A DNA stretch of 64,000 nucleotides from Alphaproteobacteria bacterium (lineage in GTDB: Bacteria; Myxococcota_A; UBA796; CAJQPC01), in assembly GCA_020632795.1 (NCBI GenBank), contig JACKEV010000023.1, forward strand, positions 5,775-69,774, given 5' to 3'. The stretch's first letter is position 1. The number at the start of each line of letters is the position of its first letter. Both the position numbers and the translations under genes were made by a program. Below the pieces are notes generated by a model. That model was not told the DNA's origin, did no database searches, and was given only the letters and a program-made list of their open reading frames with translations. Positions 13,194 through 31,137 of the stretch are shown piece after piece.

Positions 13194-15701
13194 ATGTCCG
13201 ACCCGACCATCGCCGCGAGCCTGATCCCGATCAACATCGAAGACGAGATGCGGACGTCCTACCTGGACTATTCCATGTCCGTCATCATCGGCCGCGCCCT
13301 GCCAGACGTGCGCGACGGCCTCAAGCCGGTCCACCGCCGCATCCTCTACGCGATGTACGACGAGGGCCTGCTCGCCAGCCGCAAGTACAGCAAGTGCGCG
13401 GGCGTGGTCGGCGAGGTGCTCAAGAAGTACCACCCCCACGGCGACAGCGCGGTCTACGACGCCCTGGTCCGCATGGCCCAGCCCTGGAACATGCGGTACC
13501 CGCTGGTCGACGGCCAGGGCAACTTCGGCTCCCCCGACGGCGACTCCGCAGCGGCCTACCGCTACACCGAGTCCCGCATGATGAAGCTCGCGCAGGAGCT
13601 GCTCGCGGACATCGAGAAGGAGACCGTCAACTTCACCCCCAACTTCGACGGCGTACACCTTGAGCCCGAGGTGCTGCCCGCCCGCTTCCCCAACCTGCTG
13701 GTCAACGGCTCCGAGGGCATCGCGGTGGGCATGGCCACCAAGATCCCACCCCACAACCTCGCCGAGGTCATCAACGCCACCGTCGCCCTGATCGACGACC
13801 CCGAGCTGACCAGCGAGCAGCTCATGGCCGAGCACGTCCCGGGGCCCGACTTCCCCACCGGGGCGCTCATCTACGGCCGCGCCGGCATCCACGACGCCTA
13901 CACCACCGGCCGGGGCCGGGTCATCATCCGCGCCCGCACCCACTTCGAGGACATCAGCGCCGAGCGCCAGGCCATCATCATCGACGAGCTGCCCTTCCAG
14001 GTGGGCGCCAACCGCATCATGGAGCAGATCGCCGGCCTGGTGCGGGACAAGCGCATCGAGGGCATCGCCGCGATCCGCGACGAGTCCGACCGCACCGGCC
14101 GCCGGGTGGTCATCGAGCTCAAGCGCGACGCCTACGGCGAGGTCGTGCTCAACAAGCTGTTCAAGCACACCGACCTCCAGGCCACCTTCGGCGTGATCCT
14201 GCTGGCCATCGTCAACGGCCAGCCCCAGGTGCTGACCCTGCGCGAGATGCTCGCCCAGTACATCTCCCACCGCCGCGACGTCATCACCCGGCGCTGCCGC
14301 TACGAGCTGCGCAAGGCCCGCGAGCGCGCGCACCTGGTGGAGGGCTTCCTCAAGGCCCTCGACCTCATCGACGAGATCATCGCCCTCATCCGCGCCTCCC
14401 GCACCACCGACGAGGCCCGCGAGGGCCTGATCTCCCGGTTCGAGTTCTCCGAGATCCAGGCCCGCGCCATCCTGGAGATGCAGCTCCGCCGCCTCACCGG
14501 CCTGGAGCGCGAGAAGCTGGAGGAGGAGTACGCCGAGCTGCTCGCCACCATCGAGCGCCTGGAGGCCATCCTGGCCTCGGACGCGCTCCTGATGCAGGTG
14601 GTCAAGGACGAGCTGATCGAGGTGCGCGACGCCTTCACCGACCCCCGGCGCACCGAGATCGTCGACGCGGTGGGCGAGCTGAACATCCTCGACCTCATCG
14701 CCGAGGAGGAGCAGGTCGTGACCATGTCGGTCAACGGCTACATCAAGCGCTCCTCCCTCGACCTCTACCAGGAGCAGCGCCGCGGCGGCATGGGCCGCAA
14801 GGGCATGCGCACCCGCGACGAGGACTCGGTGCGCGAGATCTTCATCGCGAACACCCACAGCTTCCTGCTGGTCTTCACCACCCAGGGCCTGGTCTACCGC
14901 CTGCCCGTCTACGCCATCCCCGAGGCCGGCCGCGACGCCAAGGGCAAGCCCATCGTCAACCTCGTCCAGCTCGAGCCCGACGAGGAGGTCGCCGCCGTCC
15001 TGAGCATCCGCGAGTTCGGCGAGGAGGACGACCTGCTGTTCTGCTCCCGGCGGGGCCTGGTCAAGCGCACCCCCCTGTCCGACTACAAGAACCTCCGCAA
15101 CGTGGGCCTGCGCGCCTACGACTGCGCCGAGGACGACTCCCTGTTCACCGTGGTGCTGCGCGGCGACGAAGAGGAGGTCATGATCGCCACCCGCGACGGC
15201 ATGTCCATCCGCTTCCCCGTCGAGGAGGTGCGCCACATGGGCCGCGTCGCCCGGGGCGTGAAGGGCATCCAGCTCCAGGACGACGATGAGATCGTCTCGA
15301 CGGAGGTCATCGCCAACGACCCCTCCCTCGAGGTGCTCGCGGTCACCGAGAACGGCTACGGCAAGCGCACCGCGCTGGACGAGTACCGGGTCCAGGGTCG
15401 GGGCGGCCAGGGCATCATCAACATCAAGACCGACGAGCGCAACGGCCACGTCGCCGGCACCCTGCAGGTCCACGACGACGACAAGGTCATGCTGATCACC
15501 GACACCGGCCGGGTCATCAAGATCGCGGTGGCCGAGATCCGCTCCCAGGGCCGGAACACCATGGGCGTCACCCTGATGCGCGTCGGCGACGACGAGCGCA
15601 TCGTCTCGGTCACCCGGGTGGTCGAGGAGGACGAGGACGACGAGGACGACGAGGTCGTCGGGCATGACGACGCCTTCGAGGACGGCGACGGCGAGGAGTA
15701 G
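13194..15701 (+). CDS. gyrA: DNA gyrase subunit A
   Basis: 835-aa ORF. Canonical GyrA motifs are [54 protein letters not shown] and the active-site AAYRYTE. C-terminal beta-pinwheel repeats and an acidic tail are present. Confidence 0.97.
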
Positions 15702-17177: not shown

Positions 17178-19607
17178 CTAAGGCTTGGGCGGGGTCAGCA
17201 CCAGGGCGCTGCGGGCGAAGCGCTCGACCTGCTCGTTGGTGTAGTAGAGGTCGTTGCGGTCGCCCCGCGCCCAGGTCCGGAGCTGGTCCTGGTAGTGGCG
17301 GCTGGCGGGCTGCCCGGAGTTGCCGGGGGGCAGCACATAGGTCGACGCGCTGAGGTCCGACAGGGGCATGATGAGCCGGAACGACGAGATGTGGTCGGTC
17401 TGCCAGCCCTCGACCCAGCTCGACCCCCCGACGGCGACGGTGTTGTCGGAGCCCGCGCCAGCCACGGTGCCCGCGTTGAGCATGGAGAGCTGGGAGACCT
17501 CAGCGGCGAAGGGGTGGTCGAACGCGACCGCGTGCACGTCACCCCACTCCCACAAGCTGGTGTCCTCGCCGTAGGTGGCCACCAGGCTGTCCCAGGTGTT
17601 GAGGAGCGCCTTGCGGATGGCCATGTCGGGGTCTTCGGTGAACCGCTCCAGCCCGCCGTCGACGTCCAGCACGGTCTGCCCGGCGGGCGCGACGGCCAGG
17701 TACATCTCGACGCCGTCCTCGCCCAGCTCGTCGGTGAGGAGCTGCCGGATGAGCTGCTCCTGGAACTCCCCCCAGATCAGGGGCGCGATGGACTCGGCGT
17801 CGGTCTGGTAGTCCCAGTCCGCCAGGGTGTCGCGCACCCACTTCGCCCCGACGCTGTTGGGGTCGGAGACGTTGATGAGGCGGGCCAGGTTGGCCTTGGC
17901 CTGGGGGTCGTGGCGGTCGAGCTGGATCTCCGCGATGGTGTCGACGGTGTGGGTCGGGGTCTCGGACAGCAGGGCCTCGATGCGGTGCTGGCGCCAGGGC
18001 AGCTCGTACTGGGCGGCCATGACCGCCCCCAGGGGGGAGGGCGCGCCGTCGATCACCGGCAGGCTGTTGGCGGACGCGATGAAGCCGGCCTCGGGGGCCT
18101 GGATCCGGACGCGCTCGGCGGCGAAGCCGGTCCAGCCCGGGGCCACCAGCTCGACCGGCGGCGGCGGGGGGGGCTCCTCCGCGGCGGGCTTCTTCTTCTT
18201 GCTGCCCTTGGGCTCCTCCTCGGGGACGGGCGCGGGCCGCGCGTCCGAGGCGATGTAGGGCACCCGGCCGGTGTGGCCCTCGCGCACGGGGTGCTGGCCG
18301 GTGATGGTCCAGCCGAAGTCGCCGGTGGTGTCGGCCAGAAGGAGGTTCAGGGAGACGATCATCGAGGTGTCGGAGAGGGGCAGGGCCTCCTCCACCGAGC
18401 CGGCGCGGGCCAGGGCGCGCAGCACGTCCGCGCTGCGGTCGACGGTCTCCATGGCATGCCAGCGCAGCACCAGCAGGTGCTTGCCATCCAGCTCGGTGAG
18501 GACCGGCCCGAGCTTCGTCCAGTTCACGGTCTCGGTGCGGCTGCCCTCGTCCTTGACCTCGACGGTGACGCTGCGGGCCTCCAGGGTCTCGTCGACCCCG
18601 TTGAGCCGGTAGCCCTGCTCGCCGACCCGCTCGACCACCGCGAGGTCCATGTAGTCGGCGCCCACGTTGGTGACGCCCCAGGCCAGGCTGTCGTTGTGCC
18701 CCGCCACCACCCCGGGCAGGCCGGGCACGGTGAAGCCGGCGGCGTGCACGCCCCCGCCCGAGACGTCCGCCACGTACCACGGGCTGGGCACCAGCAGGTG
18801 GAGGTGCACGTCGTTGGCCAGGATGGGCTTGCCGTCGGCGCTGCGCTCGGGGCCGACGACCCAGGCGTTGGAGGCCTGGGGGCTGTGGTAGATGGTGAGG
18901 GTCTCGAAGAACGCCTTGGCGGGGCCGGTCAGCTCGCCGGCCTGGGTGGTGCGCAGCCGGCCCCAGTCGGCCTCCACAGGGGTGGCCTGGGGGTGGGGGC
19001 CGAACAGGGCGTCGACGTCGGCGCGGTCCAGGCGATCGCGCAGCTGGTAGGCGACCAGCTCCTGGGGGGCGTTGGTCGAGAGGGTCAACGAGAACAGGTA
19101 GATGGACGCCATCGTGTCGAGGGGGGTCCACTCGGTCCAGCGGTCCTGCTTGAGCAGGCGGTGCTCGATGGAGAGGCCCTTGAGGCTGTCGGCGCCGGCG
19201 TTGACCCCGGCGGTGTAGGCCGCGATGACGAACCGGGTCTCCGGCTCCAGGGCCTTGAGGGACGCCTCGGCCTGCGCGCGCAGCCCCAGGCCCGCCATGA
19301 AGGTGTCCAGGTCGGCGGTCTTGGGGCCGATGTAGGCGGACAGCTCGCCGTAGGCCAGGCGCCGGGTGGCGTCGAGCTGGAAGAGGCGGTCCTGGGCGTG
19401 GGCGTAGCCCAGGGCGAAGGCGGCGTCGGCCTCGGAGGCCGCGCGGATGTGGGGCACGCCGCGCTCGTCCCGGTGGACGACGACCTCGCCGGCCAGGCCT
19501 TCGGCCTCGGCTTCGCCAGCGAGCTGGGGGAGGCTGCGGCCCTGGGTCATCAGGGTGGTGAGCGCGCAGCCGGACAGGACCAGGGACAGGAGGATGGCGG
19601 TTCTCAT
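17178..19607 (-). CDS. penicillin acylase family (Ntn-hydrolase) lipoprotein
   Basis: The track ORF is trimmed to ATG 19607 (MRTAILLSLVLSGCA). The Ntn autoprocessing site is ...SNAWVVGPERSADGKPILANDVHL. Confidence 0.85.
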   Translation of the reverse strand: MRTAILLSLVLSGCALTTLMTQGRSLPQLAGEAEAEGLAGEVVVHRDERGVPHIRAASEADAAFALGYAHAQDRLFQLDATRRLAYGELSAYIGPKTADLDTFMAGLGLRAQAEASLKALEPETRFVIAAYTAGVNAGADSLKGLSIEHRLLKQDRWTEWTPLDTMASIYLFSLTLSTNAPQELVAYQLRDRLDRADVDALFGPHPQATPVEADWGRLRTTQAGELTGPAKAFFETLTIYHSPQASNAWVVGPERSADGKPILANDVHLHLLVPSPWYVADVSGGGVHAAGFTVPGLPGVVAGHNDSLAWGVTNVGADYMDLAVVERVGEQGYRLNGVDETLEARSVTVEVKDEGSRTETVNWTKLGPVLTELDGKHLLVLRWHAMETVDRSADVLRALARAGSVEEALPLSDTSMIVSLNLLLADTTGDFGWTITGQHPVREGHTGRVPYIASDARPAPVPEEEPKGSKKKKPAAEEPPPPPPVELVAPGWTGFAAERVRIQAPEAGFIASANSLPVIDGAPSPLGAVMAAQYELPWRQHRIEALLSETPTHTVDTIAEIQLDRHDPQAKANLARLINVSDPNSVGAKWVRDTLADWDYQTDAESIAPLIWGEFQEQLIRQLLTDELGEDGVEMYLAVAPAGQTVLDVDGGLERFTEDPDMAIRKALLNTWDSLVATYGEDTSLWEWGDVHAVAFDHPFAAEVSQLSMLNAGTVAGAGSDNTVAVGGSSWVEGWQTDHISSFRLIMPLSDLSASTYVLPPGNSGQPASRHYQDQLRTWARGDRNDLYYTNEQVERFARSALVLTPPKP

Positions 19608-19684
19608 GCGCGGCAGATTAACGCGGATCGGCCCGCCCTCGCCCGTGGTCATGTAGGATCCCCCCTTGGCCCTGGAGGTCCGTC

Positions 19685-21550
19685 GTGCGTGCGCTGAAGA
19701 TCGCCCTGGATGGAGTGACGCGGGGGGTCCTGTCTGCGCTGGCCATGTGCATCTCTGAGGCCGGGGGCATGATCTTCATCTGGAACGTCTCCCGGGGGTT
19801 CCCGCTCTCGATGGAGGCCTACCGGTGGGGCAGTGCCCAGGAGGTGGTGCTGGGGGCGATCCTGGGGCTTGTGTTGTCCCCTGCCCTCTTGGCGCCGCGG
19901 GGGCGTGCGCTGCACGCGCTCGGGCTGATCGTCGTCTGGGTGGGCCTGGCTTGGGTGTTCCCGCCCGTCGAGAGCAGCATGGTCTTGAGCCTCGCCCCCG
20001 CGGTCGGCGGCAGCATGCTGTACCTGGGGGGGCTCGGGCTCGCGACGCGCTGGCCTCGAGCCTCGGTCGGGCTCGGGGCGACCACTCTGGCGCTGGTGCT
20101 GACCCTGCCCGAGTTCTTCCTGGGCGGCGCGCGCTCGGTGGAGGCCACCCGGCCCGATGCTGTGGCCGAGGGCCCCGACGTGGTGCTGGTCGTGATGGAC
20201 ACCGTCCGGGCCTCCAGCGTGTCGGCGTACGGCTACCCGGTCGAGACCACGCCCCACTTCGATCGGCTGGCGGCCGAGGGGGCCTTGTTCAAGCGGGCGG
20301 TGGCCCCGTCCACCTGGTCGCTGCCCTCGCATGCCTCCTTCTTCACCGGCCACTTCACCTCGGCGCACGGCGGCCACTCGGAGACCGGCACCCTGGACGA
20401 GGCCCTGCCCACCCTCGCCGATGTGTTCGCCGAGGCCGGCTACGAGACCGCGCTGTTCAGCGCGAACCCCCACCTCTCCGACGCCTTCGGGCTCGCCCGG
20501 GGCTACCGCTTCGAGGACCAGGCCTGGCGGGGGGACAGGACCATCGCCCATGTGTTCACGGCCCACCGGCTCCTCGCGGTGATGGGGTACGGGGAGGACG
20601 ACAAGGGCGGGGGCCGGGTCGCGGGCAACTTCGAGCGCTGGGTGGCCAGGCGCCCGGCCGACGCGCCGCCGGCCTTCGTCACCCTCAACTTCCTGGAGGC
20701 CCACGCCCCCTACGAGAAGGTCCCCGAGCCCTTCCTGTCCCGGTTCACCGACCGGCCCCACGCCGAGCTGGCGGACGTCAGCAACCTGGCGATGGCCGAC
20801 ATCTTCAACGCCAGCCTCACCCCGGAGGACGTCGAGCGGATGCGCGTGCCGATGGGTGAGATGTACCACGCCAGCGTGGCCTACACCGACCACCTGCTCT
20901 CCCGGGTCGTCGACGCCCTGCGGGCCCGGGGCTCCCTCGACGACACCGTGCTCATCGTGTTGGCGGACCACGGCGAGCTGTTGGGCGAGCACAACCGCTT
21001 CGGCCACGGCCGCCCCCTCTACGAGCCCGATCTGTGGGTCCCCCTGATGATCCGCTACCCGGCCGCGGTGCCCGCCGGGGTCGCGGTGGACCAGCCGGTG
21101 TCGACGGTGGGGGTGATGGCGACCGCGCTGGCGCTGGCCGGGCTGGACGCCCCGCCGGTGCAGGTGGGCTCGCTGCTCCCCGCGCTCCGGGGGGAGCCCG
21201 CCGGCCAGCCGCTCATCGTGGAGCGCTACCGGATGGAGCGCGGCGCCCCCACGCAGGACCCGATGTCGATGCCCGACCAGCGCTATCGGGTCTACTACAG
21301 CGGGCCCTGGAAGCTGGTGACGTGGACCGGCGGCCCGCCGATGCTCTTCGACCTCGCGGCGGACCCCACCGAGGACCACGACCTCGCCGACCAGGACCCC
21401 GCGCAGCGCGCCGCCCTTGAGGCCGAGCTGGACGGCTGGGCGACGCGCCTGGGCCTGCCGCCCCTGGACGCGGCGGCCGTGGAGGGCGAGGGCCCGAAGA
21501 TGGATGAGGAGACGCGGGATCGGCTGGAGGCGTTGGGGTACGTCGAGTGA
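19685..21550 (+). CDS. membrane-anchored sulfatase-family protein
   Basis: 621-aa ORF. Several N-terminal TM helices precede the sulfatase-fold motifs VVLVVMDTVRASS, PSTWSLPSHASFFTG, LADHGELLGEH and GHG. Confidence 0.8.
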   Translation: MRALKIALDGVTRGVLSALAMCISEAGGMIFIWNVSRGFPLSMEAYRWGSAQEVVLGAILGLVLSPALLAPRGRALHALGLIVVWVGLAWVFPPVESSMVLSLAPAVGGSMLYLGGLGLATRWPRASVGLGATTLALVLTLPEFFLGGARSVEATRPDAVAEGPDVVLVVMDTVRASSVSAYGYPVETTPHFDRLAAEGALFKRAVAPSTWSLPSHASFFTGHFTSAHGGHSETGTLDEALPTLADVFAEAGYETALFSANPHLSDAFGLARGYRFEDQAWRGDRTIAHVFTAHRLLAVMGYGEDDKGGGRVAGNFERWVARRPADAPPAFVTLNFLEAHAPYEKVPEPFLSRFTDRPHAELADVSNLAMADIFNASLTPEDVERMRVPMGEMYHASVAYTDHLLSRVVDALRARGSLDDTVLIVLADHGELLGEHNRFGHGRPLYEPDLWVPLMIRYPAAVPAGVAVDQPVSTVGVMATALALAGLDAPPVQVGSLLPALRGEPAGQPLIVERYRMERGAPTQDPMSMPDQRYRVYYSGPWKLVTWTGGPPMLFDLAADPTEDHDLADQDPAQRAALEAELDGWATRLGLPPLDAAAVEGEGPKMDEETRDRLEALGYVE

Positions 21551-21965: not shown

Positions 21966-24011
21966 GTGCGCCTGCTCACCCTCGTCCCGCCCTACCGCCA
22001 CCGCCACTGCCCCCCGGCCGGGGCCGCTGCCCTGCTCGGCCAGGCCCGGATCGATGGACACGCGGATCTCGAGCTGCTGGACCTGAGGCCGCTGACCCCT
22101 GACGTGCTGGCGCCCACCTTCAACCCCGTGGGGACGTTCGGGGAGTCCTTCGTGATGGACATCCCGGACCTGCCGCTGGCGCTGGGCGTCCTGGCGGCCT
22201 TCAGGGACGGTGGCCCGCTGGCTGAGGGTACGCCCGAGCCGCTGTTCGAGCGCTACGCCCTGGAGCGGGGCATCCACCCCCGCTGGCTGCGCGGCTGGCT
22301 GGCTGACATGGAGGCGTTCCTGGAGGACGTCTGGCGTGGCCTGCCCGCGCTGAGCCTGGTCGGGCTGTCCGTCTGGTCCTCCAACCTCACGACGAGCCTG
22401 ATGGCGGCCGCGATGCTCAAGCGCCGACCGGCGCCGCCGCTCATCGTGGCCGGCGGCCCCCAGGTCTCGGAGAGCCGGGCGTCGGCGCTGCTGGGCCTGC
22501 GGGCGGGGCTGTTCGACGCGGTCGTCGTGGGGGAAGGAGAGCGGGCCTTCTGCGAGATCCTGCGGCGCCATCGGGCCGGGGAAGCCCTGGAGGGCATCCC
22601 CGGCGTGCGCACCGCAGCGTGTCCGGCGCTGCCCGAGGCGAGCGCGCCCCTCATCAAGCTCGCCGAGGTGGCCCTCCCCGACTTCTCTCGCATGGACCTG
22701 GCCGCCTACCGCGCGCCTTCGGGCCAGCTTCGCCTGCCCTACCAGCTCTCTCGGGGGTGCACGGACCGCTGCACCTTCTGCAGCGAGTGGGTGTTCTGGC
22801 AGCGCTTCCGACCCGCCTCGGTGGAGCGGAGCCTCGTCCAGTTGGAGGTGCTGAGCGCGCGCTGGGGCGTGCGGGCCTTCCACTTCACCGACTCCCTGCT
22901 CAACGGGCACCCCAGGCAGCTGCGCGCCTTCGCCGAGGGTCTGCTGGAGCGGGATCTGCAGCTGGACTGGGGGGGCTTCATGCGGGCGCAGATGGACCCG
23001 GAGACCGCGAGGCTGCTGCGGGCGGCGGGCTGCAGCTACGCCTACATCGGCGTCGAGTCCCTCTCCGATGAGACCCTGGCAGCCATGAACAAGCGCCGCA
23101 CCCGGGCTCAGAACCTGGAGGCCATCGACGCGCTGCTGGAGGCGGGGATCGCCGTCTCGGTGGGGGTGATCCCCGGCTTCCCTGGCGACACCCGGGCGCG
23201 GTTCCTGGCGACGGCCCGGGAGCTGGCCGCCCTGGCCGAGGCCTGGCCGGGCCGGTTCAGCTTCAACGTGGAGCCCTTCGTGGTCTCGCCGGCCCAGCCC
23301 CTGGCCCGGGACCTCGACGCGGTGGGCCTGCGCCCGGTGCCCTGGCCTCCCGAGATCCTGGACATCACGCCGGAGCTCGCCGACCTCCTGGAGGGCGTGG
23401 CCTGCGCCGTGGAGGGCGCCAACCAGGGCGCCGAGCGCGCCGGACAGCTCCAGGTGCTGGAGGTGCTCACCGACGCGACGCGAGGCGCGGCCGCCTCCCA
23501 CCGCCCGGAGGACCTGCCCGAGGATCGGGCTCGCTTCCTCAGCGCCGGGTCCCTGCGCCTTGCGCTGGTCAAGCAGCGGGGTCGCCTGGTCGGCGCGCTG
23601 CTCCGCCCCGAGGAGGAGGCGCGGCTTCGAGCGCTGGTGCAGGAGGGTCGCCCGGGCGCCCCGCTGGGTCAGCATCCCGGCTTCGCGTCGACCTGGAGGG
23701 TCCTGCTGGAGCAGCAGGCCTGGCGTCCCGGGCGTCGGGCCTGGCCCGCGCGGCAGGTCGAGCGCGTGGAGGACCGCCACCGCTTGTGGGTGCCTGACCA
23801 CGTCGTCGGCCGGGTCGAGCGCGGGCGGCTCGTGCTCGCCCACCTGCTGAATGGCCGCAGCGCGTCGCTCCCCGCCGCGCTCGCCACGCCGCTGGCTGCG
23901 CTGTCCGAGGCGGCCGGGGCGGCGCCGGCCCTGCGCGGCTGGCTGCCCCAGAGGGAGCTGGACGACCTCCACCGCCAGGGCTTCCTGCAGGTGCTGCCCC
24001 CCAGCGCTTGA
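21966..24011 (+). CDS. B12-binding-domain radical SAM protein
   Basis: 681-aa ORF (GTG start). It has a CX3CX2C motif (CTDRCTFC) after an N-terminal Rossmann-like region. It is convergent with the GNAT gene, 3 nt apart. Confidence 0.8.
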   Translation: MRLLTLVPPYRHRHCPPAGAAALLGQARIDGHADLELLDLRPLTPDVLAPTFNPVGTFGESFVMDIPDLPLALGVLAAFRDGGPLAEGTPEPLFERYALERGIHPRWLRGWLADMEAFLEDVWRGLPALSLVGLSVWSSNLTTSLMAAAMLKRRPAPPLIVAGGPQVSESRASALLGLRAGLFDAVVVGEGERAFCEILRRHRAGEALEGIPGVRTAACPALPEASAPLIKLAEVALPDFSRMDLAAYRAPSGQLRLPYQLSRGCTDRCTFCSEWVFWQRFRPASVERSLVQLEVLSARWGVRAFHFTDSLLNGHPRQLRAFAEGLLERDLQLDWGGFMRAQMDPETARLLRAAGCSYAYIGVESLSDETLAAMNKRRTRAQNLEAIDALLEAGIAVSVGVIPGFPGDTRARFLATARELAALAEAWPGRFSFNVEPFVVSPAQPLARDLDAVGLRPVPWPPEILDITPELADLLEGVACAVEGANQGAERAGQLQVLEVLTDATRGAAASHRPEDLPEDRARFLSAGSLRLALVKQRGRLVGALLRPEEEARLRALVQEGRPGAPLGQHPGFASTWRVLLEQQAWRPGRRAWPARQVERVEDRHRLWVPDHVVGRVERGRLVLAHLLNGRSASLPAALATPLAALSEAAGAAPALRGWLPQRELDDLHRQGFLQVLPPSA

Positions 24012-24014
24012 GGT

Positions 24015-24932
24015 TCAGCGTCGGCCCGCCAGCGCAGCCCGCACCGCGACCCAGGGGGCCCGGTAGCGGTACGTCCGGGCGACGAGGGTGAAGCCGAGGC
24101 GCGCGTAGAGGCGGCGGGCCCCGGCGTTCACGCTGCTGACCTGGAGACGGGCGGCGTGTCCCCGGTCCAGGATCTGCCGCAGCACCGCGTCTCCCAGCGC
24201 TTGCCCCACCCCCTTGCCCTGCGCGGCGGGGTCCACGACGATGCTCTCGATCCACGTCGCGCCGCGGTCGGCCTCCAGGTGGGCGTAGCCGACCAGCGCG
24301 CCGTCCAGCCGAGCCACCCACAGCTCGGCGTCCACGAGCAGCTCGGCCATGCCGGGCGCGGTGAAGGGGACGAAGGAGATGTCCTCGGCGTAGGCCAGGT
24401 TGTGGAGCGCAGCGACCGCGTCGGCCACGGCGGACGGCTCAGCCACAGGCTCGACGCGGAGGCCCTCCACGACCCTCGATCGCCGGGCGGGGGCCTCCTC
24501 GCATCGCATCTCCAGCTCCTCCTCCACCACCGCGAAGCCCAACGCCTCCACGAAGCGGCGACCGGTCGCCCACGCCTCGGGGCAGAGGGTCTGCAGGGTG
24601 ACCGCCTCGAGCGCCTGGTCCAGCTCGGTGATCGCCCACAGGAGCCGACCGCCGACGCCCTCCCGGCGGCGGGTGAGGTCGACCAGGACGCGAAAGTGAC
24701 GCAGCGGGGTCCCCTCCGGGCTGCGCAGGGAGGAGGTCGCCAGGCCGATCAGGCGGCCGTCCTCCTCGGCCACGCGGAACCCGACGCCTCCTTGGTTGAC
24801 CTCAAACCCCAGGAAGCGCTCCCACGCGGCGGCGCTGAGCGGTCCGCCGGTGCCGTCGGCGGCCAGGCGGTCGTAGAGGTCGACCACCGCGGGGGTGTCC
24901 TCGGCGCGGAGGGCGCGGATCAATACAGCCAC
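24015..24932 (-). CDS. two-domain GNAT N-acetyltransferase
   Basis: The track ORF is trimmed to GTG 24932 (TTG 24923 also possible). Two GNAT cores are present, including the acetyl-CoA loop VDPAAQGKGVGQALGDAVL and an earlier RRREGVGGRLL. Confidence 0.7.
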   Translation of the reverse strand: MAVLIRALRAEDTPAVVDLYDRLAADGTGGPLSAAAWERFLGFEVNQGGVGFRVAEEDGRLIGLATSSLRSPEGTPLRHFRVLVDLTRRREGVGGRLLWAITELDQALEAVTLQTLCPEAWATGRRFVEALGFAVVEEELEMRCEEAPARRSRVVEGLRVEPVAEPSAVADAVAALHNLAYAEDISFVPFTAPGMAELLVDAELWVARLDGALVGYAHLEADRGATWIESIVVDPAAQGKGVGQALGDAVLRQILDRGHAARLQVSSVNAGARRLYARLGFTLVARTYRYRAPWVAVRAALAGRR

Positions 24933-25675
24933 TGCACGACTCCCTGCCGCGAGCGGCGACGGTTCGGTGTGATCGAGTGGTAGGCCGGGCCGCGCTGGAA
25001 GTCGAGCAGCACCAGGCGATTCGCCTGGGGCACGACCTGGGCGAGCAGGCGCGCGCGAGCGGGCCGCACCCCCACGGGCGCGGCCACCTCGACCTCCAGC
25101 GTGGTGGCTTCCTCCAGGAAGCCCAGCGGCCGGCCGACGAAGGCATCCCACCGGAGCAGGCCGGCGGGCGCGGGGTCGAGCGTCTCCACCTCCCAGAGCT
25201 GGAGGAGCCCCCCGTCCGCCGCCCGCCAGTCCGGGGTGAGGTAGAGCAGCGCCGCGGCGGACTTGCAGGCCTCCGGATCCCGGTCGGTGTGCGGCCAGAA
25301 ACCCAGCGAATCCGGGGGATGACGCCGGGCCTTCACCACCGTGCGCCCGGGCTGGCGCAGCGTGATGTCCAGGGCCCGAGCCACCCAGTCGTGCCAGGCC
25401 GGGGACGTCCAGAGCTCGTGGCCCGGTGACGCCGGGTCGCCGTCCAGGCGCATGGCCAGCGCGTCGTAGTTGAGGTCGGGGGAGTCGGGGACCAGGGGCA
25501 GGGTCGCCCAGGCCGCCTGCAGCGCCTCCAGCGCCTCGGGCCGCAGCAGGTCGTCCACCACCAGGTAGCGCTCGAAGGGGCGGGCGCGGGCCTGCTCCTG
25601 AAGAGCCCGGGGATCGAGCAACTCGGGCCGCAGCCAGGCCTGGAGCACATCAGCGCTCGGCCCCGCGGACCTCAT
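24920..25675 (-). CDS. 2OG-Fe(II) oxygenase-like protein (paralog 2)
   Basis: The track ORF is trimmed to ATG 25675 (ATGA overlap with the upstream stop). Candidate facial triad is WPHTD ... AYHSI, with a downstream Arg. It is clearly paralogous to 25672..26391. Confidence 0.6.
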   Translation of the reverse strand: MRSAGPSADVLQAWLRPELLDPRALQEQARARPFERYLVVDDLLRPEALEALQAAWATLPLVPDSPDLNYDALAMRLDGDPASPGHELWTSPAWHDWVARALDITLRQPGRTVVKARRHPPDSLGFWPHTDRDPEACKSAAALLYLTPDWRAADGGLLQLWEVETLDPAPAGLLRWDAFVGRPLGFLEEATTLEVEVAAPVGVRPARARLLAQVVPQANRLVLLDFQRGPAYHSITPNRRRSRQGVVQWLY

Positions 25676-26391
25676 GCCACCCACTGCAGCACCGCGCGGC
25701 GCGCCCGGCCGTGGCTCGGGGTCACCGAGTGGACCGCCTGCTGCGGGTGGAGGCCGATGAGCACCGCCCGGTTGCGCTCCGGGACGACCTGATCGAGCAG
25801 GCGCAGGCGCGTGACCGGCAGGTTCCAGGGCCCCCCCAGCTCCAGCACCAGCTCCCGGCGCTCCTCCAGGAAGCCGAGGTGCTCGCGCTCGCGGTCCGCC
25901 CAGCGCATGGGCTCGTCCCCGGGGCGGGTGGGGAGCGCCTGCCAACGCTGGAGGAGCCCCCCGTCCGCCGCCCGCCAGCCCGGGTCGAGGTAGAGCAGCA
26001 CGGCCAGGCGACGGGGGATGCCGGGCAGATCGTCGACGTGGGGCCAGAAGCCGCGCGCGTCGGGCGGGTGGATCCGAGCGGCGACGGTGAGGGCGCAGAC
26101 CTCAGGCTCCGGCTCGTCCAGCGCGCGGTGCAGCCAACGCATCCAGGCGGGGGCGTAGAACAGCTCGGCCAGCGCGTCGTCCGGGGCCACCCGGCTGGAG
26201 GTGGAGTCGTAGGGCAGACCCTCGTTGTCGGGCGCGAAGCGGCGCCGGGCGAAGTCCGCGTCGATGCGCGCGAGGGCCTCCTCTCGCAGGAGCCCGTCCA
26301 CGACCAGCCAGCGGCCGTGGGCGCAGGCTCGGGCGTCCTCGGCCAGGCGCGAGGGGTCCAGCCAACGTGGGGACAGCCAGCGCTCCAGCAC
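25672..26391 (-). CDS. 2OG-Fe(II) oxygenase-like protein (paralog 1)
   Basis: 239-aa ORF. It has WPHVD ... AVHSV ... R plus LLYLDPGWRAADGGLLQRW, matching LLYLTPDWRAADGGLLQLW in the paralog. Confidence 0.6.
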   Translation of the reverse strand: MLERWLSPRWLDPSRLAEDARACAHGRWLVVDGLLREEALARIDADFARRRFAPDNEGLPYDSTSSRVAPDDALAELFYAPAWMRWLHRALDEPEPEVCALTVAARIHPPDARGFWPHVDDLPGIPRRLAVLLYLDPGWRAADGGLLQRWQALPTRPGDEPMRWADREREHLGFLEERRELVLELGGPWNLPVTRLRLLDQVVPERNRAVLIGLHPQQAVHSVTPSHGRARRAVLQWVA

Positions 26392-26393
26392 CG

Positions 26394-27347
26394 TCAGATC
26401 CCAAGCGGCGGCCGCTGATCGGGGCCGTCGGCGTCCATGTCGTCCCAGTAGTCCTCCAGGGCGAGCTGGTAGGCGTAGAGGTCAGCGCTCACCGTGGGCT
26501 GGTCGGGGTCCAGCAGCGCCTGAAGGCGGCGGGCGTTGCGCCCCGCGCGGCTGCCCTCCGCCCGCGCCGCGCTGTGGGCGATCGCCTCGCGGAGCAGCGC
26601 GTCGCCGCGCAGCAGATCCAGGGCGTACCGGTTGCCGTCGAGGCTTCGGCGCAGCCAGCTCGGGGGACGCTCTCCCTTGAGGATGACGACGCTGTAGGGG
26701 AAGGACACATGCAGCAGGGGGCGGAGCCCGGCGCCGTGGAAGAAGCGGCTGGCCGCCCGCGCCGGGCCCTGGGCGTGGTGGAAGAAGTCGTCCAGGATGA
26801 GCAGCCCCCCCTCGACCAGCCTCGGCCAGAGGGCCTCCAGGCACTGCAGCACCGAGCGGTACAGGTCGGCGTCCACATGCACCAGCGCCAACGGTCCCTT
26901 GGGGAGGGTGGACAGGGTGCGCTCGAAGAAGCCAGGGACCGGCCGCACCACCGCGTCGAGGCCCTGCTCCGCCAGCAAGGCCCGGAAGCGCTCGAGCAGC
27001 GCCTCCCGGCCCGGTCGGGTCCGGTAGTCGCCTTCGCGGAAGTAGGGGTTGTCGACGGCGTCATCCGGCGGGGGGAGGCCTTCGAAGCTGTCCAGGGCGT
27101 ACACCCGTCGACCCGCCGCGCGGGCGAAGTCCCCGAAGAAGACGCTGGTGCCGCCCCGCCCCACGCCGCACTCCACGAGGTCTCCCTCCAACTGTGGCAG
27201 GCGCTCGGCGAGGAGGTGGCCGTACGCCCAGTGCCCCCAGGGCCAGGGCGGCTTGAGGCAGTGGCGCTCCAGCGCGACGATGCGAGCGCCCAGCGGCCCG
27301 GCGTCCGCGAACCAGCGGGCGTCGAACAGGTCGAAGGGGAAGCTCAT
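26394..27347 (-). CDS. TylF/MycF-type class I SAM-dependent methyltransferase
   Basis: 317-aa ORF. Motifs are GDLVECGVGRGGTSVFF, YALDSFEGLP and VHVDADLYRSVLQCLEALWPRLVEGGLLILDDF. Confidence 0.8.
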   Translation of the reverse strand: MSFPFDLFDARWFADAGPLGARIVALERHCLKPPWPWGHWAYGHLLAERLPQLEGDLVECGVGRGGTSVFFGDFARAAGRRVYALDSFEGLPPPDDAVDNPYFREGDYRTRPGREALLERFRALLAEQGLDAVVRPVPGFFERTLSTLPKGPLALVHVDADLYRSVLQCLEALWPRLVEGGLLILDDFFHHAQGPARAASRFFHGAGLRPLLHVSFPYSVVILKGERPPSWLRRSLDGNRYALDLLRGDALLREAIAHSAARAEGSRAGRNARRLQALLDPDQPTVSADLYAYQLALEDYWDDMDADGPDQRPPLGI

Positions 27348-28207
27348 CCGGCCCCCTCGAGCTGGCGCTGCAGGGCCGCGAGCAGGCGGACGAGCCCGAA
27401 GACCACCACCTGACCGCTGCGGAGGGTGATCGGGTCCAGGTCCACGTCGTACTCAGTCCAGTCGGCCCCGACCAGGGGGAGGTCCAGGCGCCGTACGGTC
27501 TCCAGCACCCGGTCGAGGTCTCCCAGGGTCAGGCCCTCGGGCAGAGGGTGACGCACCGCAGGCAGCACGCTGGGGTCGAAGGCGTCGCTGTCCACGGTCA
27601 GGTAGACGGGCACGCCCGGCGCCAGGGCCTCGGCCAACCCCGCCACCGTGCTGCGCACCACCCCTGGCGTGGGCTCGGGGCGCAGGCTGCTGTAGCCCCG
27701 CACGCCCACCTGCACCACGCGCTCCACCTCGGGGCAGCGGGCCAGGAAGGAGACGAAGTTGGAGTGGGTGGGCAGGCTGTCGGGCCGCAGCGGCGCCAGG
27801 TCGTGGTGGGCGTCGAGCTGCAGCACCTGCAGGCCACCGATCGCCCGGGCCACCCCGCGGGCCAGGGGCAGGGAGACCGCATGGTCCCCCCCCAGCCCCA
27901 GCACCACCTTGCCCTGGCGGGCCAACGTCACCGCCGTGGCCTCCACCAGATCGAAGAAGTCCCGGTGTGGCCAGCTCGCCCGATGCACCAGGTCCCCGAG
28001 GTCGCTCAGCCGCAGGGAGGAGAGGACCAGCGCGTCCGTGGCGTAGTCGAGGATGCCCTCAGAGAGGCGCTCGCTGGCGGTCAGCCCCCGCAGGGTCGAG
28101 GGGGCGTGCAGGACGCCGCCGCCCCGGGCCGCGCCGTGGGCGAAGGCCACCCCCAGCGCCACCACCTGGCCCTCGTCCCCGGAGGGGGCCCCGAAGAGCG
28201 TGCTCAT
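27344..28207 (-). CDS. arginase/agmatinase/formiminoglutamase-family (ureohydrolase) protein
   Basis: 287-aa ORF. Mn-ligand motifs are GGDHAVSLP, LQLDAHHDL and LTVDSDAFDPSVLPAV. ATGA overlaps occur at both ends. Confidence 0.8.
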   Translation of the reverse strand: MSTLFGAPSGDEGQVVALGVAFAHGAARGGGVLHAPSTLRGLTASERLSEGILDYATDALVLSSLRLSDLGDLVHRASWPHRDFFDLVEATAVTLARQGKVVLGLGGDHAVSLPLARGVARAIGGLQVLQLDAHHDLAPLRPDSLPTHSNFVSFLARCPEVERVVQVGVRGYSSLRPEPTPGVVRSTVAGLAEALAPGVPVYLTVDSDAFDPSVLPAVRHPLPEGLTLGDLDRVLETVRRLDLPLVGADWTEYDVDLDPITLRSGQVVVFGLVRLLAALQRQLEGAG

Positions 28208-28878
28208 GGCTCCAGCCCATCCAGGTCGAGCAGCCCCTCCGCCAGCAGGCGTTCGCGGGCGTCCGGGCGGCGGTCGGTGAAGACCTCCCTGTCGCGGGTG
28301 AGCCCTCGGCAGGGGCTCGGGTGCCCGGGGCGCACGGACCAGAAGAAGCCGCTCTGCAGCGCGTCCCAGGCCGGGTCGAGGGCCGTGACCTTGCGCTGGT
28401 CCAGGCAGGCGGCGAAGTCCAGGTAGAGGTCGTCTCGCAGCCCCTCGTCCGCGCCCGGTCGCCGCAGGCCGAAGGCATCCCGGGCCCAGAAGAAGAAGCG
28501 GCTGTAGCCCTCGTAGGCCCGCCCCACCCCCACCGGGTCGGGCAAGGAGAAGCGCGGTTCGAAGAAGGCGTCCGAGGAGAGGAACGCGGACAGCCAGCGC
28601 TGGCCCAGGGCCTCGCGGGCGTCCCGGGCCCCCAGGTGCCGCAGGGTCGCGGCGAAGACCATCTCCAGATCCTGGGCGGCCAGCAGCCGCCGACCATGCA
28701 TCTCCGCGCGGTGGCCCTCCGAGAGAGGGTCGGGCAGGCAGGCGGACCAGTGTGACGGTACCCGCCAGAGGGCGAGGACCGCCTCGGGGTCCTCCGCGAA
28801 GGCCTGGGCGGTGCGCTCGCAGTAGAGCAGCTTGAGGTGCAGCCGCTGCACCCGCACCAGCTCCAGGGAGCCGCTCAC
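28204..28878 (-). CDS. hypothetical protein, positional equivalent of the MbnC/TglI/DUF2063-type partner of DUF692 enzymes
   Basis: The track ORF 28204..29043 is trimmed to GTG 28878, which overlaps the DUF692 stop (GTGA). I could not recognise the family from sequence. The call rests on position and coupling only. Confidence 0.45.
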   Translation of the reverse strand: MSGSLELVRVQRLHLKLLYCERTAQAFAEDPEAVLALWRVPSHWSACLPDPLSEGHRAEMHGRRLLAAQDLEMVFAATLRHLGARDAREALGQRWLSAFLSSDAFFEPRFSLPDPVGVGRAYEGYSRFFFWARDAFGLRRPGADEGLRDDLYLDFAACLDQRKVTALDPAWDALQSGFFWSVRPGHPSPCRGLTRDREVFTDRRPDARERLLAEGLLDLDGLEP

Positions 28879-29684
28879 GACACCACGCGGCGGAGCTGCT
28901 CCAGGGTGCGGACGAGGTCCGTCTCCGGCGCGGCGTCCGAGTGCTCGAAGGTCACCGCCCGGAGCGCGGGCAGCTCCCGCACCAGGGTGGCGGTCAGCGT
29001 CAGGATCTCCTCCTCCGGGACCCGGTCGTGGCTGTCGTGCCACCAGCGTCCGCTCTGCCCGGCCCGGATGCCGGCGACGTGAAGCTCCACGATCCGCTCG
29101 GCGGGCAGGGCGTCCAGGCCGAAGTCGGCGGCTCGACCGAGGTTCCGGTTCGACGCCGTCCAGTGGGCGACGTCGAGGATGATCAGCGTGTCTCCGGCCT
29201 CAGCGACCCGGGCGAGGAAGCGCAGCTCGCTGTCCAGCGCTCCGACGTGCTGGTAGACCGGGGCCAGCTCCAGGGCGACCGGGCGACCGTAGAAGGCCTG
29301 CAGGGCGCGGGCGTTTCGGGCGGCCACCTCCACGAAGGCTTCGCAGAGGATCGGCGTCACGATGTAGCCCAGCCGGCCCTCCGCCCCGGGCCCGGCCCAG
29401 CAGAGGTGCTCGCCCACCCAGGGGCTGTCCCAGGCGTCCGCAGCCTCGCGCACCTGCTCGGCCAGGCGCAGGTTGACCCCCTGGGGGCTGGCGATGGGGT
29501 TGATGGGGCAGTGTACGAGCACGGGCACGCCCTCCCCCACCCGGGGAGGGTGCCCCGGGGTGATGGGGAAGTTCGCCTCGACGTAGTCGATGAGCCCCGC
29601 CGTGGCCGCCCGGGCCAGACGCTCATCCTGGTTGGGGTAGTCCCAGCGGGCGCCGAGGGTCGGGCGCCCGGTCGGCAAGCTCAC
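28875..29684 (-). CDS. DUF692 (UPF0276; MbnB/TglH/ChrH-like) TIM-barrel non-haem iron enzyme
   Basis: 269-aa ORF (GTG start). DUF692 landmarks are IDYVEANF, VLVHCP, SPWVGEHLCW, VALELAPVY, LILDVAHW and IVELHVAG. Confidence 0.8.
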   Translation of the reverse strand: MSLPTGRPTLGARWDYPNQDERLARAATAGLIDYVEANFPITPGHPPRVGEGVPVLVHCPINPIASPQGVNLRLAEQVREAADAWDSPWVGEHLCWAGPGAEGRLGYIVTPILCEAFVEVAARNARALQAFYGRPVALELAPVYQHVGALDSELRFLARVAEAGDTLIILDVAHWTASNRNLGRAADFGLDALPAERIVELHVAGIRAGQSGRWWHDSHDRVPEEEILTLTATLVRELPALRAVTFEHSDAAPETDLVRTLEQLRRVVS

Positions 29685-30040
29685 GCGCCGTCCCGATCCG
29701 GGCCGGAGTCCTCGTCGTCGGCGGCCTCCACCGCGCGGGGCCCGACGTCTTCACGGGGCCGCAGAGCAGCGACCGCGCGGGGCCCGACGTCCTCACGGGG
29801 CCGCAGGGCAGCGACCGCGCGGGGCCCGACGTCCTCACGGGGCCGCAGAGCCTCCACCGCGCGGGGCCCGACGTCCTCACGGGGGCGCAGAGCCTCCACC
29901 GCGCGGGGCCCGACGTCCTCACGGGGGCGCAGGGCCTCCACCACGCGGGGCCCGACGTCCTCACGGGGGCGCAGGGCCTCCACCGTGCGAGGACCCACAT
30001 CCCGACCCTTCTTCCGGCCGCCATCACCGCTGGAACTCAT
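29681..30040 (-). CDS. 119-aa cysteine-free repeat peptide (about 7 x 14 aa, consensus REDVGPRAVEALRP); candidate RiPP precursor
   Basis: ATG 30040 lies 5 nt after a perfect AGGAGG. The TGA overlaps the GTG of the DUF692 gene (GTGA). The repeat unit is 42 bp (3n). Within the repeat, GC by codon position follows the pattern expected for real coding frames in GC-rich genomes (pos1 high, pos2 lowest, pos3 high). An in-frame ATG at 30067 is an alternative start. Confidence 0.6.
   Translation of the reverse strand: MSSSGDGGRKKGRDVGPRTVEALRPREDVGPRVVEALRPREDVGPRAVEALRPREDVGPRAVEALRPREDVGPRAVAALRPREDVGPRAVAALRPREDVGPRAVEAADDEDSGPDRDGA
29726..30019. repeat. tandem 42-bp repeat: 6 near-perfect copies plus 1 degenerate copy
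   Basis: Units begin at 29726, 29768, 29810, 29852, 29894, 29936 and 29978 (degenerate). The plus-strand consensus is ctccaccgcgcggggcccgacgtcctcacggggScgcagRgc. Confidence 0.95.
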
Positions 30041-30045
30041 GGACA

Positions 30046-30051
30046 CCTCCT
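30046..30051 (-). promoter_or_regulatory. Shine-Dalgarno (AGGAGG) for the repeat-peptide ORF
   Basis: The plus strand reads cctcct at 30046..30051. A 5-nt spacer separates it from ATG 30040. Confidence 0.6.
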
Positions 30052-30096
30052 GGCGGGATGCTACCATCCTCTCCGGTATGGTTCGGGGCTCCGTGC

Positions 30097-31137
30097 ATGC
30101 GCCAGATCATCCGGAGGGATACCCCCAACGTCGCACGGAGCCCGATCCAACACAGCCGACTGCGGGCTGAGGTGTTCAGGATATCGGTGAAGTCACGCCG
30201 CTCCATCGCCGTCGTCGCCCTGCTCGTCCTCGCCGCCGTCAACGCGGTGGCGTACGCCCACGCCCGCGCCATGCTGACCTGGGCCCCCGACGGCGCGCGC
30301 ACCCCGCCCCCCGAGCAGCTCTCCACCGCCGGGCGCCTGCGCACCCTGCTGCTCGGCGTGCGCATCCCCCGCCCCCGCCCCACCCGCACGCCGGACACGC
30401 TGGGTCTGCCCTTCGAGGCCCACACCCTGACCCCCCCGGGCGAGCCCGCCCTGTCCCTGTGGGAGGTCCCCGTCGAGGACCCCCGGGGCACGGTGGTCCT
30501 CATCCACGGCTACACCGCCGCGAAGGACCAGCTCCTGGAGCTGGCGCCGCCCCTACGGGAGATGGGCTGGCGGGTGGTGCTCGTCGACCTGCGGGGCTCC
30601 GGGGACAGCGGCGGCACCGGCACCACCATCGGGGTCACCGAGGCGCGGGACGTCGCGGCGGTCGCGGCCTGGGCCCCGCGGCCGGTGGTGCTCTATGGCT
30701 TCTCGATGGGCGCCGCCGCCGCCCTGCGCGCGGTCGCCGCCGAGGGCGCCACCCCGGACGGCCTCATCCTGGAGGCGGTCTTCGACCGGCTGCGCACCAC
30801 CGTGGGCAACCGCTTCCGCTCGATGGGCCTGCCCGCCCGCCCCGGCGCCGATCTGCTTTTGTTCTGGGGCGGCATCATCTCGGGCTTCGACCCCGCCGGA
30901 CACGCCCCCGTGAGCTACGCCACCCGGGTGCGCGCGCCGACGCTGGTGCTGCACGGGACCGAGGACCCCCGCGCCCACCTGGCCGAGGGCCGGGCGGTGT
31001 ACGACGCGCTGGCAGGCCCGTCCCGCTGGGTGGCGTTCGAAGGCCTGGGGCACGAGCTCTCCGCGGTCGCCCAGCCCGCGCGGTGGGGGGGCGCGGTGGG
31101 GGCCTTCCTGGAGGCGCGGGCGCCGCAGGGCCAATAA
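30097..31137 (+). CDS. membrane-anchored alpha/beta-hydrolase (serine hydrolase)
   Basis: The track ORF 30058..31137 has its start uncertain (ATG 30097 or GTG 30187). An N-terminal TM helix is IAVVALLVLAAVNAVAYA. Other features are HGYTAAKD, the nucleophile elbow GFSMGAA and a C-terminal GLGHE. It is divergent from the repeat-peptide operon. Confidence 0.7.
   Translation: MRQIIRRDTPNVARSPIQHSRLRAEVFRISVKSRRSIAVVALLVLAAVNAVAYAHARAMLTWAPDGARTPPPEQLSTAGRLRTLLLGVRIPRPRPTRTPDTLGLPFEAHTLTPPGEPALSLWEVPVEDPRGTVVLIHGYTAAKDQLLELAPPLREMGWRVVLVDLRGSGDSGGTGTTIGVTEARDVAAVAAWAPRPVVLYGFSMGAAAALRAVAAEGATPDGLILEAVFDRLRTTVGNRFRSMGLPARPGADLLLFWGGIISGFDPAGHAPVSYATRVRAPTLVLHGTEDPRAHLAEGRAVYDALAGPSRWVAFEGLGHELSAVAQPARWGGAVGAFLEARAPQGQ

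Follow-up and report, generated by a model that had tools for sequence, protein, structure and literature searches.

A candidate RiPP gene cluster joining a cysteine-free heptapeptide-repeat precursor, a DUF692-type iron enzyme and a set of tailoring enzymes

[quoted passage not shown] The question is raised by a 64,000-nt stretch (the window) of contig JACKEV010000023.1 (assembly GCA_020632795.1, positions 5,775 to 69,774), deposited under Alphaproteobacteria and placed in Myxococcota_A by its GTDB lineage, in which such genes, here termed A to H, stand in a row on the minus strand (Table 1). A GC content near 74% and the closest relatives also suggest Myxococcota. The initial annotation, made from the letters alone, had proposed an undescribed pathway to a peptide made on the ribosome and then modified post-translationally (RiPP), and the proposal is supported by the MNIO models, by the conserved precursor open reading frame (ORF) and motif, and by the literature, in which no matching characterised pathway was found. 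The cluster is real, conserved and so far uncharacterised. We consider it moderately likely that it is a RiPP-type cluster whose substrate is the repeat peptide of the first cistron, each R-P-R-E-D-V-G unit being a core that would be recognised without a conserved leader; the repeat protein is probably chemically rewritten by the iron enzyme together with up to seven helper enzymes.

The precursor gene carries a tandem array with a period of 42 nt (6.3 copies, 93% matches, no indels), and its product begins with a short N-terminal region and a degenerate unit, continues with six full units (not seven) of 14 residues each, [E/A]-A-L-RPREDVG-P-R-[V/A]-V in form, and closes with an acidic tail. 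It has no Cys, ends in DRDGA and is translated from a first cistron with a good ribosome-binding site, just as had been annotated. Look-ups in genomes, metagenomes and assemblies returned 12 related loci with the full theme. L001 and L033 are contigs of uncultured Myxococcales; the others come from Archangium violaceum Cb vi76 (L002), from a Myxococcota metagenome-assembled genome (MAG; L003), from two strains of Bradyrhizobium (L023/24) and from seven further contigs (L025-L032). Recurrence of the same gene set and peptide motif at 12 other loci is far beyond chance. The core R-P-R-E-D-[V/T]-G is present in the precursors of all 12, in 2-13 copies each, and is then followed by Gly or Pro. At every repeat-type locus the precursor gene lies in frame directly 5' of the MNIO gene; the initial annotation had staked its case on the small ORF not being lost or frame-broken in homologous loci, and the ORF is in frame with the same motif everywhere.

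Among 48 distinct DNA versions of the core from the 12 loci, the heptapeptide is unchanged apart from the Val/Thr exchange, with 2-5 synonymous codons in use per position, and the flanking and linker positions between cores vary freely. Since the core residues are fixed despite synonymous codon change, this comparison offers direct evidence that the precursor ORF is translated and that its core is under strong purifying selection. No aromatic residue occurs in any core repeat. The N-terminal regions of the precursors are unrelated between loci and range in length from 22 aa in the window to about 50 in L033 and about 250 in L030, where a hydrophobic segment is included. Those of L002, L003 and L031 are rich in Lys, Ala and Pro (e.g. 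KKPAAKKPAAKKPAA), like bacterial histone-like tails. At the other end, many precursors terminate 1-2 residues past the last core Gly, with DVGG, DVGR, DVGH or DWA as the final residues. Copy number also varies between the Bradyrhizobium strains, with 13 units in one (L023, 9271-9900) vs 9 in the other (L024, 2290-2814), and in the Bradyrhizobium record the precursor is missing from the called genes. Only five called precursors were found among 5.8 billion predicted proteins; a comparison of the precursor with 1.84 billion representatives gave 59 matches, of which only three had the motif, the others being unrelated repeat proteins; and the JGI metagenome contigs held just two loci. The few called precursors and the few JGI loci indicate a family that is rare and mostly unannotated, and thus largely invisible to protein-based mining.

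The product of gene B scores 101 bits with the Pfam family PF05114 (MbnB_TglH_ChrH), whose cut-off is 25, and its best NCBIfam model is ApyH (NF050151; 115 bits), compared with 75 for BufB and 58 for HvfB. When its AlphaFold2 model (pLDDT 94.6) was compared by Foldseek, TglH, MbnB and a DUF692 structure made up the first nine matches, with TM scores of 0.75-0.83. The earlier assignment to DUF692 is therefore borne out by PF05114, by the NCBIfam models and by the predicted fold, a TIM barrel like those of TglH and MbnB. About 95 relatives of the enzyme were found at 45-73% identity, and nine residues (H58, H93, E139, D171, H174, H202, D217, H219 and E247) are invariant among 34 relatives. These nine candidate iron ligands appear to agree in order and spacing with those of MbnB.

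The gene directly 3' of the MNIO gene encodes the presumed partner protein, and this adjacency holds in all of about 30 related loci. The annotated pairing of an MNIO with a downstream partner stands as far as adjacency and co-inheritance go, but the partner matches no described partner profile: neither Pfam nor NCBIfam, DUF2063 included, contains a family for it, and a 14-sequence profile found no match among PDB sequences. Its AlphaFold2 model (pLDDT 93) has MbnC (7dz9_C) as its best PDB match, a weak one (E 0.23, TM 0.40/0.47), and TglI was not retrieved. No relatives of the partner were found in viral contigs.

The eight ORFs, read from the sequence, are all intact and occupy 24015-30040. 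Start and stop codons overlap by 4 nt at the A/B, B/C, C/D, D/E and F/G junctions, a 2-nt gap separates the TylF gene from the first oxygenase gene (E/F), and the second oxygenase gene overlaps the GNAT gene (G/H) by 13 nt. On re-reading, the ORFs and overlaps of the annotated minus-strand operon were recovered exactly, and an independent gene caller had set the same ORF boundaries on two metagenome contigs with identical genes. GC content at third codon positions (GC3) is 0.92-0.94 in the seven enzyme genes, which fits the expectation for real genes at a genome GC of 74%. No Rfam family was found in the whole 64-kb window.

The precursor, MNIO, partner and arginase genes are present at 12/12 related loci, and those for oxygenase G and the double GNAT at all of them where the contig extends far enough; genes for a TylF enzyme, oxygenase F, a JmjC hydroxylase and a B12-binding radical S-adenosylmethionine (SAM) enzyme (B12-rSAM) are optional. 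The co-occurrence of precursor and enzyme set in other genomes, for which neighbourhood mining had been suggested, is thus found at the 12 related loci. L033 has the genes in the order A-B-C-D-E-F-G-H, after which come a JmjC gene and a convergent rSAM gene; but for the missing JmjC gene, the window is arranged identically.

The families called earlier for the MNIO, arginase, TylF, 2-oxoglutarate (2OG) oxygenase and GNAT genes hold in Pfam. Ureohydrolase D matches Arginase with 130 bits, and the metal motifs GGDH, DAHHD and DSDAFDP can be read in its translation. An arginase gene is found at every locus with Arg in the core that reaches far enough, and at none in a sister clade with Arg-free GDW cores. 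Enzyme E matches TylF with 98 bits and has the O-methyltransferases NovP and MycF as PDB relatives; TylF is present at every locus reaching that far, except Bradyrhizobium. In L026 (5609-7453), arginase and TylF are fused into one 614-aa protein, which suggests that the two enzymes may act together or consecutively.

Oxygenase F, with a readable HVD...H triad, occurs intact or as a remnant at 7/7 loci in which the core is followed by Pro (Pro8-type) vs 0/3 in which it is followed by Gly (Gly8-type). The window, L003, L028, L030 and L033 have an intact copy, the copy of L023 carries a frameshift, and that of L029 has suffered an internal deletion, so that a 150-aa ORF between the TylF and oxygenase G genes (8002-8454) keeps the N- and C-terminal parts of an F-type enzyme and has lost the catalytic core. 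Oxygenase G has orthologues of 42-58% identity in all sufficiently long loci. The double GNAT, kept in the same loci, has two stretches that match Acetyltransf_1/7/10 and a weak end-to-end alignment with the two-domain MshD model, and its nearest solved relatives are polyamine and N-terminal acetyltransferases. A JmjC/Cupin_8 protein is encoded at eight loci, the window not among them.

The B12-rSAM gene converges on the operon, its stop codon 3 nt from that of the GNAT gene. Its best NCBIfam model is rSAM_ocin_1 (RiPP C-methyltransferase subfamily; 111 bits, under the cut-off), ApyD is among the weaker matches, and TokK and OxsB are its PDB relatives. Orthologues with 49-58% identity adjoin the cluster in L026/27 and L028-L033, in four different orientations, and this conserved neighbourhood makes the gene a ninth member of the cluster. 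The extent given in the initial annotation was consequently right about the eight ORFs but short for the unit as a whole, which has at least nine genes. The divergent alpha/beta-hydrolase gene upstream of the precursor was also considered, as a candidate protease or member, and was set aside for having no orthologue beside the cluster elsewhere (E<=1e-6); unrelated alpha/beta-hydrolases lie near the cluster in L002 and L030.

Several clusters lie in mobile surroundings. In L025 (1-8700) the cluster adjoins Tn7-like TniQ/TniB genes, and in L028 (1-5200, 15900-17300) it lies within an element that encodes an integrase, a large terminase and a DUF927 primase-like product; these two contexts suggest that the cluster may be transferred horizontally. 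IS110, Mutator and IS21 transposases border the Bradyrhizobium cluster of L023, which lacks TylF. In L003 (9700-16500), the cluster ORFs fall under the GC3 >= 0.80 filter that flanking ORFs pass, consistent with recent acquisition in that genome. An anti-phage role, prompted by the mobile contexts, was dropped when PADLOC gave only generic 2OG and rSAM models.

Which residues of the core are altered may be read from more distant relatives. Three distant loci keep the MNIO and partner and have single-core, leader-plus-core precursors ending in DVGH: L011 (SDRPDRDVGH), which also encodes an arginase, a 2OG oxygenase and a transporter of the major facilitator superfamily (MFS); L035 (MGPRQDVGH), where a JmjC protein, a 2OG oxygenase and a product with a GNAT-like motif are encoded; and L036 (RRRTRGDVGH), whose additional genes are for an MFS transporter and an arginase. 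In two single-core relatives, the precursor gene is just 3' of the partner gene instead of 5' of the MNIO gene. The MFS genes beside L011 and L036 point to a small product that would be exported. In the sister clade, from Polyangiaceae (L004-6, L034), the MNIO is 53-55% identical, the precursor has GGGDW repeats (GDWG/GDWA) and a DWA end, and there is neither Arg nor an arginase. Among all clades, the only common enzymes are the MNIO and the partner, and the only common core residue is Asp, followed by V, T or W and then by G or A. It has been reported that ApyHI modifies a C-terminal Asp (PMC12452194 Table 1), and that PesHI and PflD beta-hydroxylate Asp, PesHI within a P-R-x-D motif (PMC13060819, PMC12636437, PMC13174530). 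Because the MNIO/partner pair and Asp are both shared by all clades, ApyH is the nearest model and the PesHI/PflD precedents exist, Asp is the most probable target of the MNIO.

By a similar reasoning, we infer that the arginase-family enzyme makes ornithine (Orn) from core Arg, because its metal motifs are intact, it is missing in the Arg-free clade, it is fused to TylF in one locus, and PbsE and OspR are precedents of peptide arginases (PMC12257519). The distribution of the oxygenases suggests that F may act on the Pro after the core and G on the universal Pro, and shared ancestry could give the same pattern. More remote MNIO-partner pairs (47-51% identical) were seen in Alphaproteobacteria MAGs (L007-L018, about 7700-11500), beside asd, leuB and leuD and with a divergent TPR protein some 700 aa long. 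In L007-L018 there is no arginase and no recognisable precursor, the sole conserved upstream small ORF being antisense of the TPR gene.

The scheme that follows is a proposal in each chemical step, in their order and in the release of the product, built on the genes, families, predicted folds, co-occurrence and core selection described above. The ribosome would make the multi-core precursor, and the MNIO and its partner would bind a unit and oxidise its Asp, with beta-hydroxylation as the minimum; a further, four-electron oxidation of Asp as in ApyH may be possible, given the full metal-ligand set. The arginase-family enzyme would convert one or both conserved Arg into Orn, and oxygenase G would hydroxylate the Pro of R-P (or Orn), while the optional oxygenase F would hydroxylate the Pro following the core in the same loci. 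At other loci than the window, the optional JmjC enzyme might hydroxylate Orn, for which the Orn hydroxylase BpmG, also a JmjC protein, has been described (PMC12257519). The double GNAT may then acetylate an amine, most plausibly the Orn delta-amine, the TylF enzyme may O-methylate a newly made hydroxyl, and the B12-rSAM may C-methylate an unactivated carbon or form a cross-link. Finally, unlinked host proteases would free several copies of a small modified peptide.

A number of observations weigh against this multi-core reading and have to be set beside the general RiPP criterion of a short conserved precursor next to modifying enzymes, which describes the 12 related loci and the three single-core loci. 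With 115 vs 400 bits the MNIO falls below the ApyH equivalog cut-off, and its conserved Asp is internal, not C-terminal; by this measure the enzyme is ApyH-like but no equivalog. The similarity between the partner model and MbnC is not significant by itself. Ureohydrolase D has agmatinases as its nearest PDB sequences, closer than any named peptide arginase, none of which is among its PDB sequence matches at E<=1e-5. The 2OG-FeII_Oxy_3/4 scores of oxygenases F and G (27-32 bits) are at or just over the Pfam cut-off, and the only PDB sequence matches of G are HIF prolyl hydroxylases, very weak ones. Simple promoter and terminator scans of 23500-30600 gave nothing useful on the operon strand. 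The repeat-type loci share no conserved leader of the kind recognised by a RiPP recognition element (RRE), no dedicated protease and no exporter, the MFS genes standing only beside single-core relatives. Furthermore, the residue assignments rest on co-occurrence among about a dozen loci that are phylogenetically related.

The missing protease and exporter bear most directly on the rival that survives best, a rather unlikely one, in which the product is an intact, multiply modified repeat polypeptide, for instance a polyvalent metal-binding or a surface- or nucleoid-associated "RiPP-protein", with the N-termini as anchors. The N-termini are module-like, being Lys/Ala-rich and histone-tail-like in L002, L003 and L031 and about 250 aa long with a hydrophobic segment in L030. 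Large repeat proteins, the EGKCG oxazolins, have already been proposed as MNIO substrates (PMC12452194), and metal binding is common among MNIO products (PMC11626156, PMC12452194). However, precursors of the classical kind, with a short leader and a core, and MFS exporters are found in the distant relatives, a copy number that ranges over 2-13 (9 vs 13 in the Bradyrhizobium strains) fits a dosage-type multi-core precursor, and the linkers between cores are poorly conserved.

Release without any protease would also be explained if the MNIO or an oxygenase cut the backbone oxidatively at Val-Gly, through hydroxylation of the Gly alpha-carbon and N-C-alpha cleavage, to give amidated units; this we regard as improbable. 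It would account for the near-invariant Gly (or Ala) after a hydrophobic residue in all clades, for the many precursors that stop 1-2 residues after that Gly, and for the absence of a conserved protease. MovX, an MNIO, is a precedent, as it reportedly cleaves an N-C-alpha bond to leave a C-terminal amide (PMC12452194 Table 1), but its substrate residue is said to be a C-terminal Asn and not Gly, the nearest curated model here is ApyH and not of the MovX type, and Gly may be conserved just for flexibility or recognition.

Very improbable, and strongly disfavoured, is a third rival, in which some small guanidino or amino compound would be the substrate of the enzymes, and the repeat ORF would be an unrelated protein, a regulatory element or a by-product of repetitive DNA. 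In its favour, the ureohydrolase is most like agmatinases, and TylF, GNAT and 2OG enzymes often use small molecules. Against it, the repeat ORF is in frame directly 5' of the MNIO gene at every repeat-type locus, runs over the start codon of the MNIO gene and is preceded by a consensus ribosome-binding site; its core keeps its amino acids while synonymous codons change, in different phyla and at different GC contents; and the characterised MNIOs listed in the literature all act on ribosomal peptides (PMC12452194, PMC13174530).

A bolder version of the multi-core RiPP reading can be put forward tentatively as a possibility: a new RiPP class of leaderless tandem heptapeptides, with a partner of a new type and undescribed MNIO chemistry on an internal Asp-Val-Gly, which with the tailoring steps would yield numerous copies of one small peptide rich in Orn, hydroxy-Asp and hydroxy-Pro, ligands reminiscent of those in siderophores, from a cassette that may move between phyla on mobile elements.

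Table 1. Positions in the window of the cluster genes and associated features
Feature	Position	Strand	Remarks
A, precursor peptide gene	29681-30040	-	ATG start, 119 aa
B, MNIO (DUF692) enzyme	28875-29684	-	GTG start, 269 aa; PF05114
C, MNIO partner protein, no described family	28204-28878	-	GTG start, 224 aa; directly 3' of MNIO gene
D, arginase/agmatinase-family ureohydrolase, putative peptide arginase (Arg to Orn)	27344-28207	-	ATG start, 287 aa; Pfam Arginase
E, TylF/MycF/NovP-type SAM-dependent O-methyltransferase	26394-27347	-	ATG start, 317 aa; Pfam TylF
F, 2OG/Fe(II) oxygenase, F type, optional member	25672-26391	-	GTG start, 239 aa; Pfam 2OG-FeII_Oxy_3/4
G, 2OG/Fe(II) oxygenase, G type	24920-25675	-	ATG start, 251 aa; Pfam 2OG-FeII_Oxy_3/4
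H, double-GNAT N-acetyltransferase	24015-24932	-	GTG start, 305 aa; Acetyltransf_1/7/10 x2
B12-binding radical SAM enzyme, convergent on operon	21966-24011	+	681 aa; Pfam Radical_SAM and B12-binding
Divergent alpha/beta-hydrolase (S33/S9-like), cluster membership doubtful	30058-31137	+	Pfam Hydrolase_4, Abhydrolase_1, Peptidase_S9
42-nt tandem repeat array within precursor gene	29724-29989	-	Tandem Repeats Finder
Shine-Dalgarno AGGAGG	30046-30051	-	5-nt spacer to precursor ATG (30040); read from sequence

Genes that flank the cluster, such as those for a penicillin amidase, a sulfatase and a DUF697 protein, were rejected as members, since they are not shared with other loci. The penicillin amidase (17178-19652, minus strand) and the sulfatase (19685-21550, plus strand), both named by Pfam, are ordinary chromosomal neighbours, and so is an unshared ORF at 13194-15701 (plus strand), GyrA-like as judged from its N-terminal sequence only. 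Farther away, a 2789-aa ORF (48018-56387, minus strand) appears to encode a polymorphic toxin, its repeats being of the RHS, FG-GAP and TcdB mid/N types. On the same strand 3' of it, the region 42000-48000 has 55% GC (about 73% in the window) and small ORFs without Pfam matches, and a SUKH-3 immunity protein is encoded at 47067-47552 within this low-GC stretch. Together, the RHS ORF and the low-GC ORFs have the appearance of a toxin and its arrayed immunity or orphan cassettes.

Few sources now yield as much new peptide chemistry as the MNIOs, of which about 13,800 sequences are known, with a known reaction for only a small fraction of them (PMC13174530). What the present family adds is an absolutely conserved core, free of Cys and of aromatic residues, that recurs in Myxococcota, in Bradyrhizobium and in metagenomes; a partner protein outside the described families; and up to nine enzymes for seven residues. 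The natural series of precursors from 1 core to 13 cores makes the question of leaderless substrate finding directly testable, and the two cultured carriers, Archangium violaceum Cb vi76 and a Bradyrhizobium, allow the product to be sought.

A full-text literature search found no description of an MNIO family with RPRED[V/T]G repeats, and the supplements of the MNIO landscape paper mention neither Archangium violaceum nor arginase or TylF. The initial annotation had held that the tailoring set matches no known DUF692 pathway, and that a multi-repeat Cys-free peptide is an unusual MNIO substrate. No characterised pathway is identical, but biphenomycin and some nitrilobacillin-type clusters are partial precedents; likewise, a Cys-free repeat is new, but repeat precursors as such are known from the EGKCG oxazolins (PMC12452194).

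The closest characterised architecture is that of biphenomycin, followed by nitrilobacillin and aminopyruvatide. The biphenomycin pathway comprises the MNIO PbsC, the RRE partner PbsD, the arginase PbsE, the Orn hydroxylase PbsQ/BpmG and the B12-rSAM PbsB (PMC12257519). Compared by gene content, both systems group an MNIO, a partner, an arginase-family enzyme, hydroxylases of the Fe/2OG type (cupin/JmjC) and a B12-rSAM with one ribosomal peptide, here the putative substrate, and in both the arginase is present only where the core has Arg (PMC12257519). In contrast, the biphenomycin MNIO hydroxylates Phe in an aromatic FHAFRF core, and no FHAFRF, FHTFMF or YHxYxY motif is found here. Biphenomycin also has a single core, a conserved leader and a TldD-type protease, whereas the present family has repeated cores, unrelated N-termini and no conserved protease, and the double GNAT, the TylF enzyme and the prolyl-hydroxylase-like oxygenases are extras here.

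The nitrilobacillin system PesHI/PesO shares the P-R-x-D core (P-R-E-D here), in which Asp is beta-hydroxylated by the MNIO and Pro hydroxylated by a 2OG enzyme, and in some orthologous clusters an arginase replaces the Pro hydroxylase (PMC13060819). Unlike the present family, it relies on an asparagine-synthetase-like nitrile synthetase, for which there is no gene here, and its motif is one R(V/T)DN core at the C-terminus; its Pro hydroxylase is of the HExxH type, while the oxygenases here are prolyl-hydroxylase-like. PesH reportedly lacks the third-iron motif; in the present MNIO, every candidate ligand position is conserved. Aminopyruvatide (ApyHI/ApyD) is similar in providing the best curated model of the MNIO, a weak match (ApyD) for the rSAM enzyme and an Asp substrate (PMC12452194 Table 1), Asp being the probable target here as well, but the Asp of ApyHI is C-terminal, whereas here Asp is internal and repeated, neither a P450 nor a YLY motif is found, and the score is under the ApyH cut-off.

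The oxazolin-type Buf_EGKCG systems (HvfABC type) likewise have many tandem short motifs, each presumed to be modified by MNIO and partner (PMC12452194). Their repeats, however, are Cys-based and lead to thiooxazole or oxazolone-thioamide, they have Sec signal peptides and DUF2063 partners, and no arginase, GNAT, methyltransferase or rSAM enzyme belongs to them. The peptide arginases OspR (landornamide) and PbsE offer a further parallel, as enzymes of the ureohydrolase fold in RiPP clusters with an Arg core, but the putative peptide arginase here is nearest to agmatinases. Overall, as judged from precursor motifs and model scores, the family resembles these systems in its apparent way of working but belongs to none of them, since its precursors carry none of their defining motifs and its MNIO scores far under the ApyH cut-off. 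Not a categorically new system, the family is a variant of the MNIO-type RiPP theme, uncharacterised but with a well-defined core that can be tested, and it is a good lead for genome mining.

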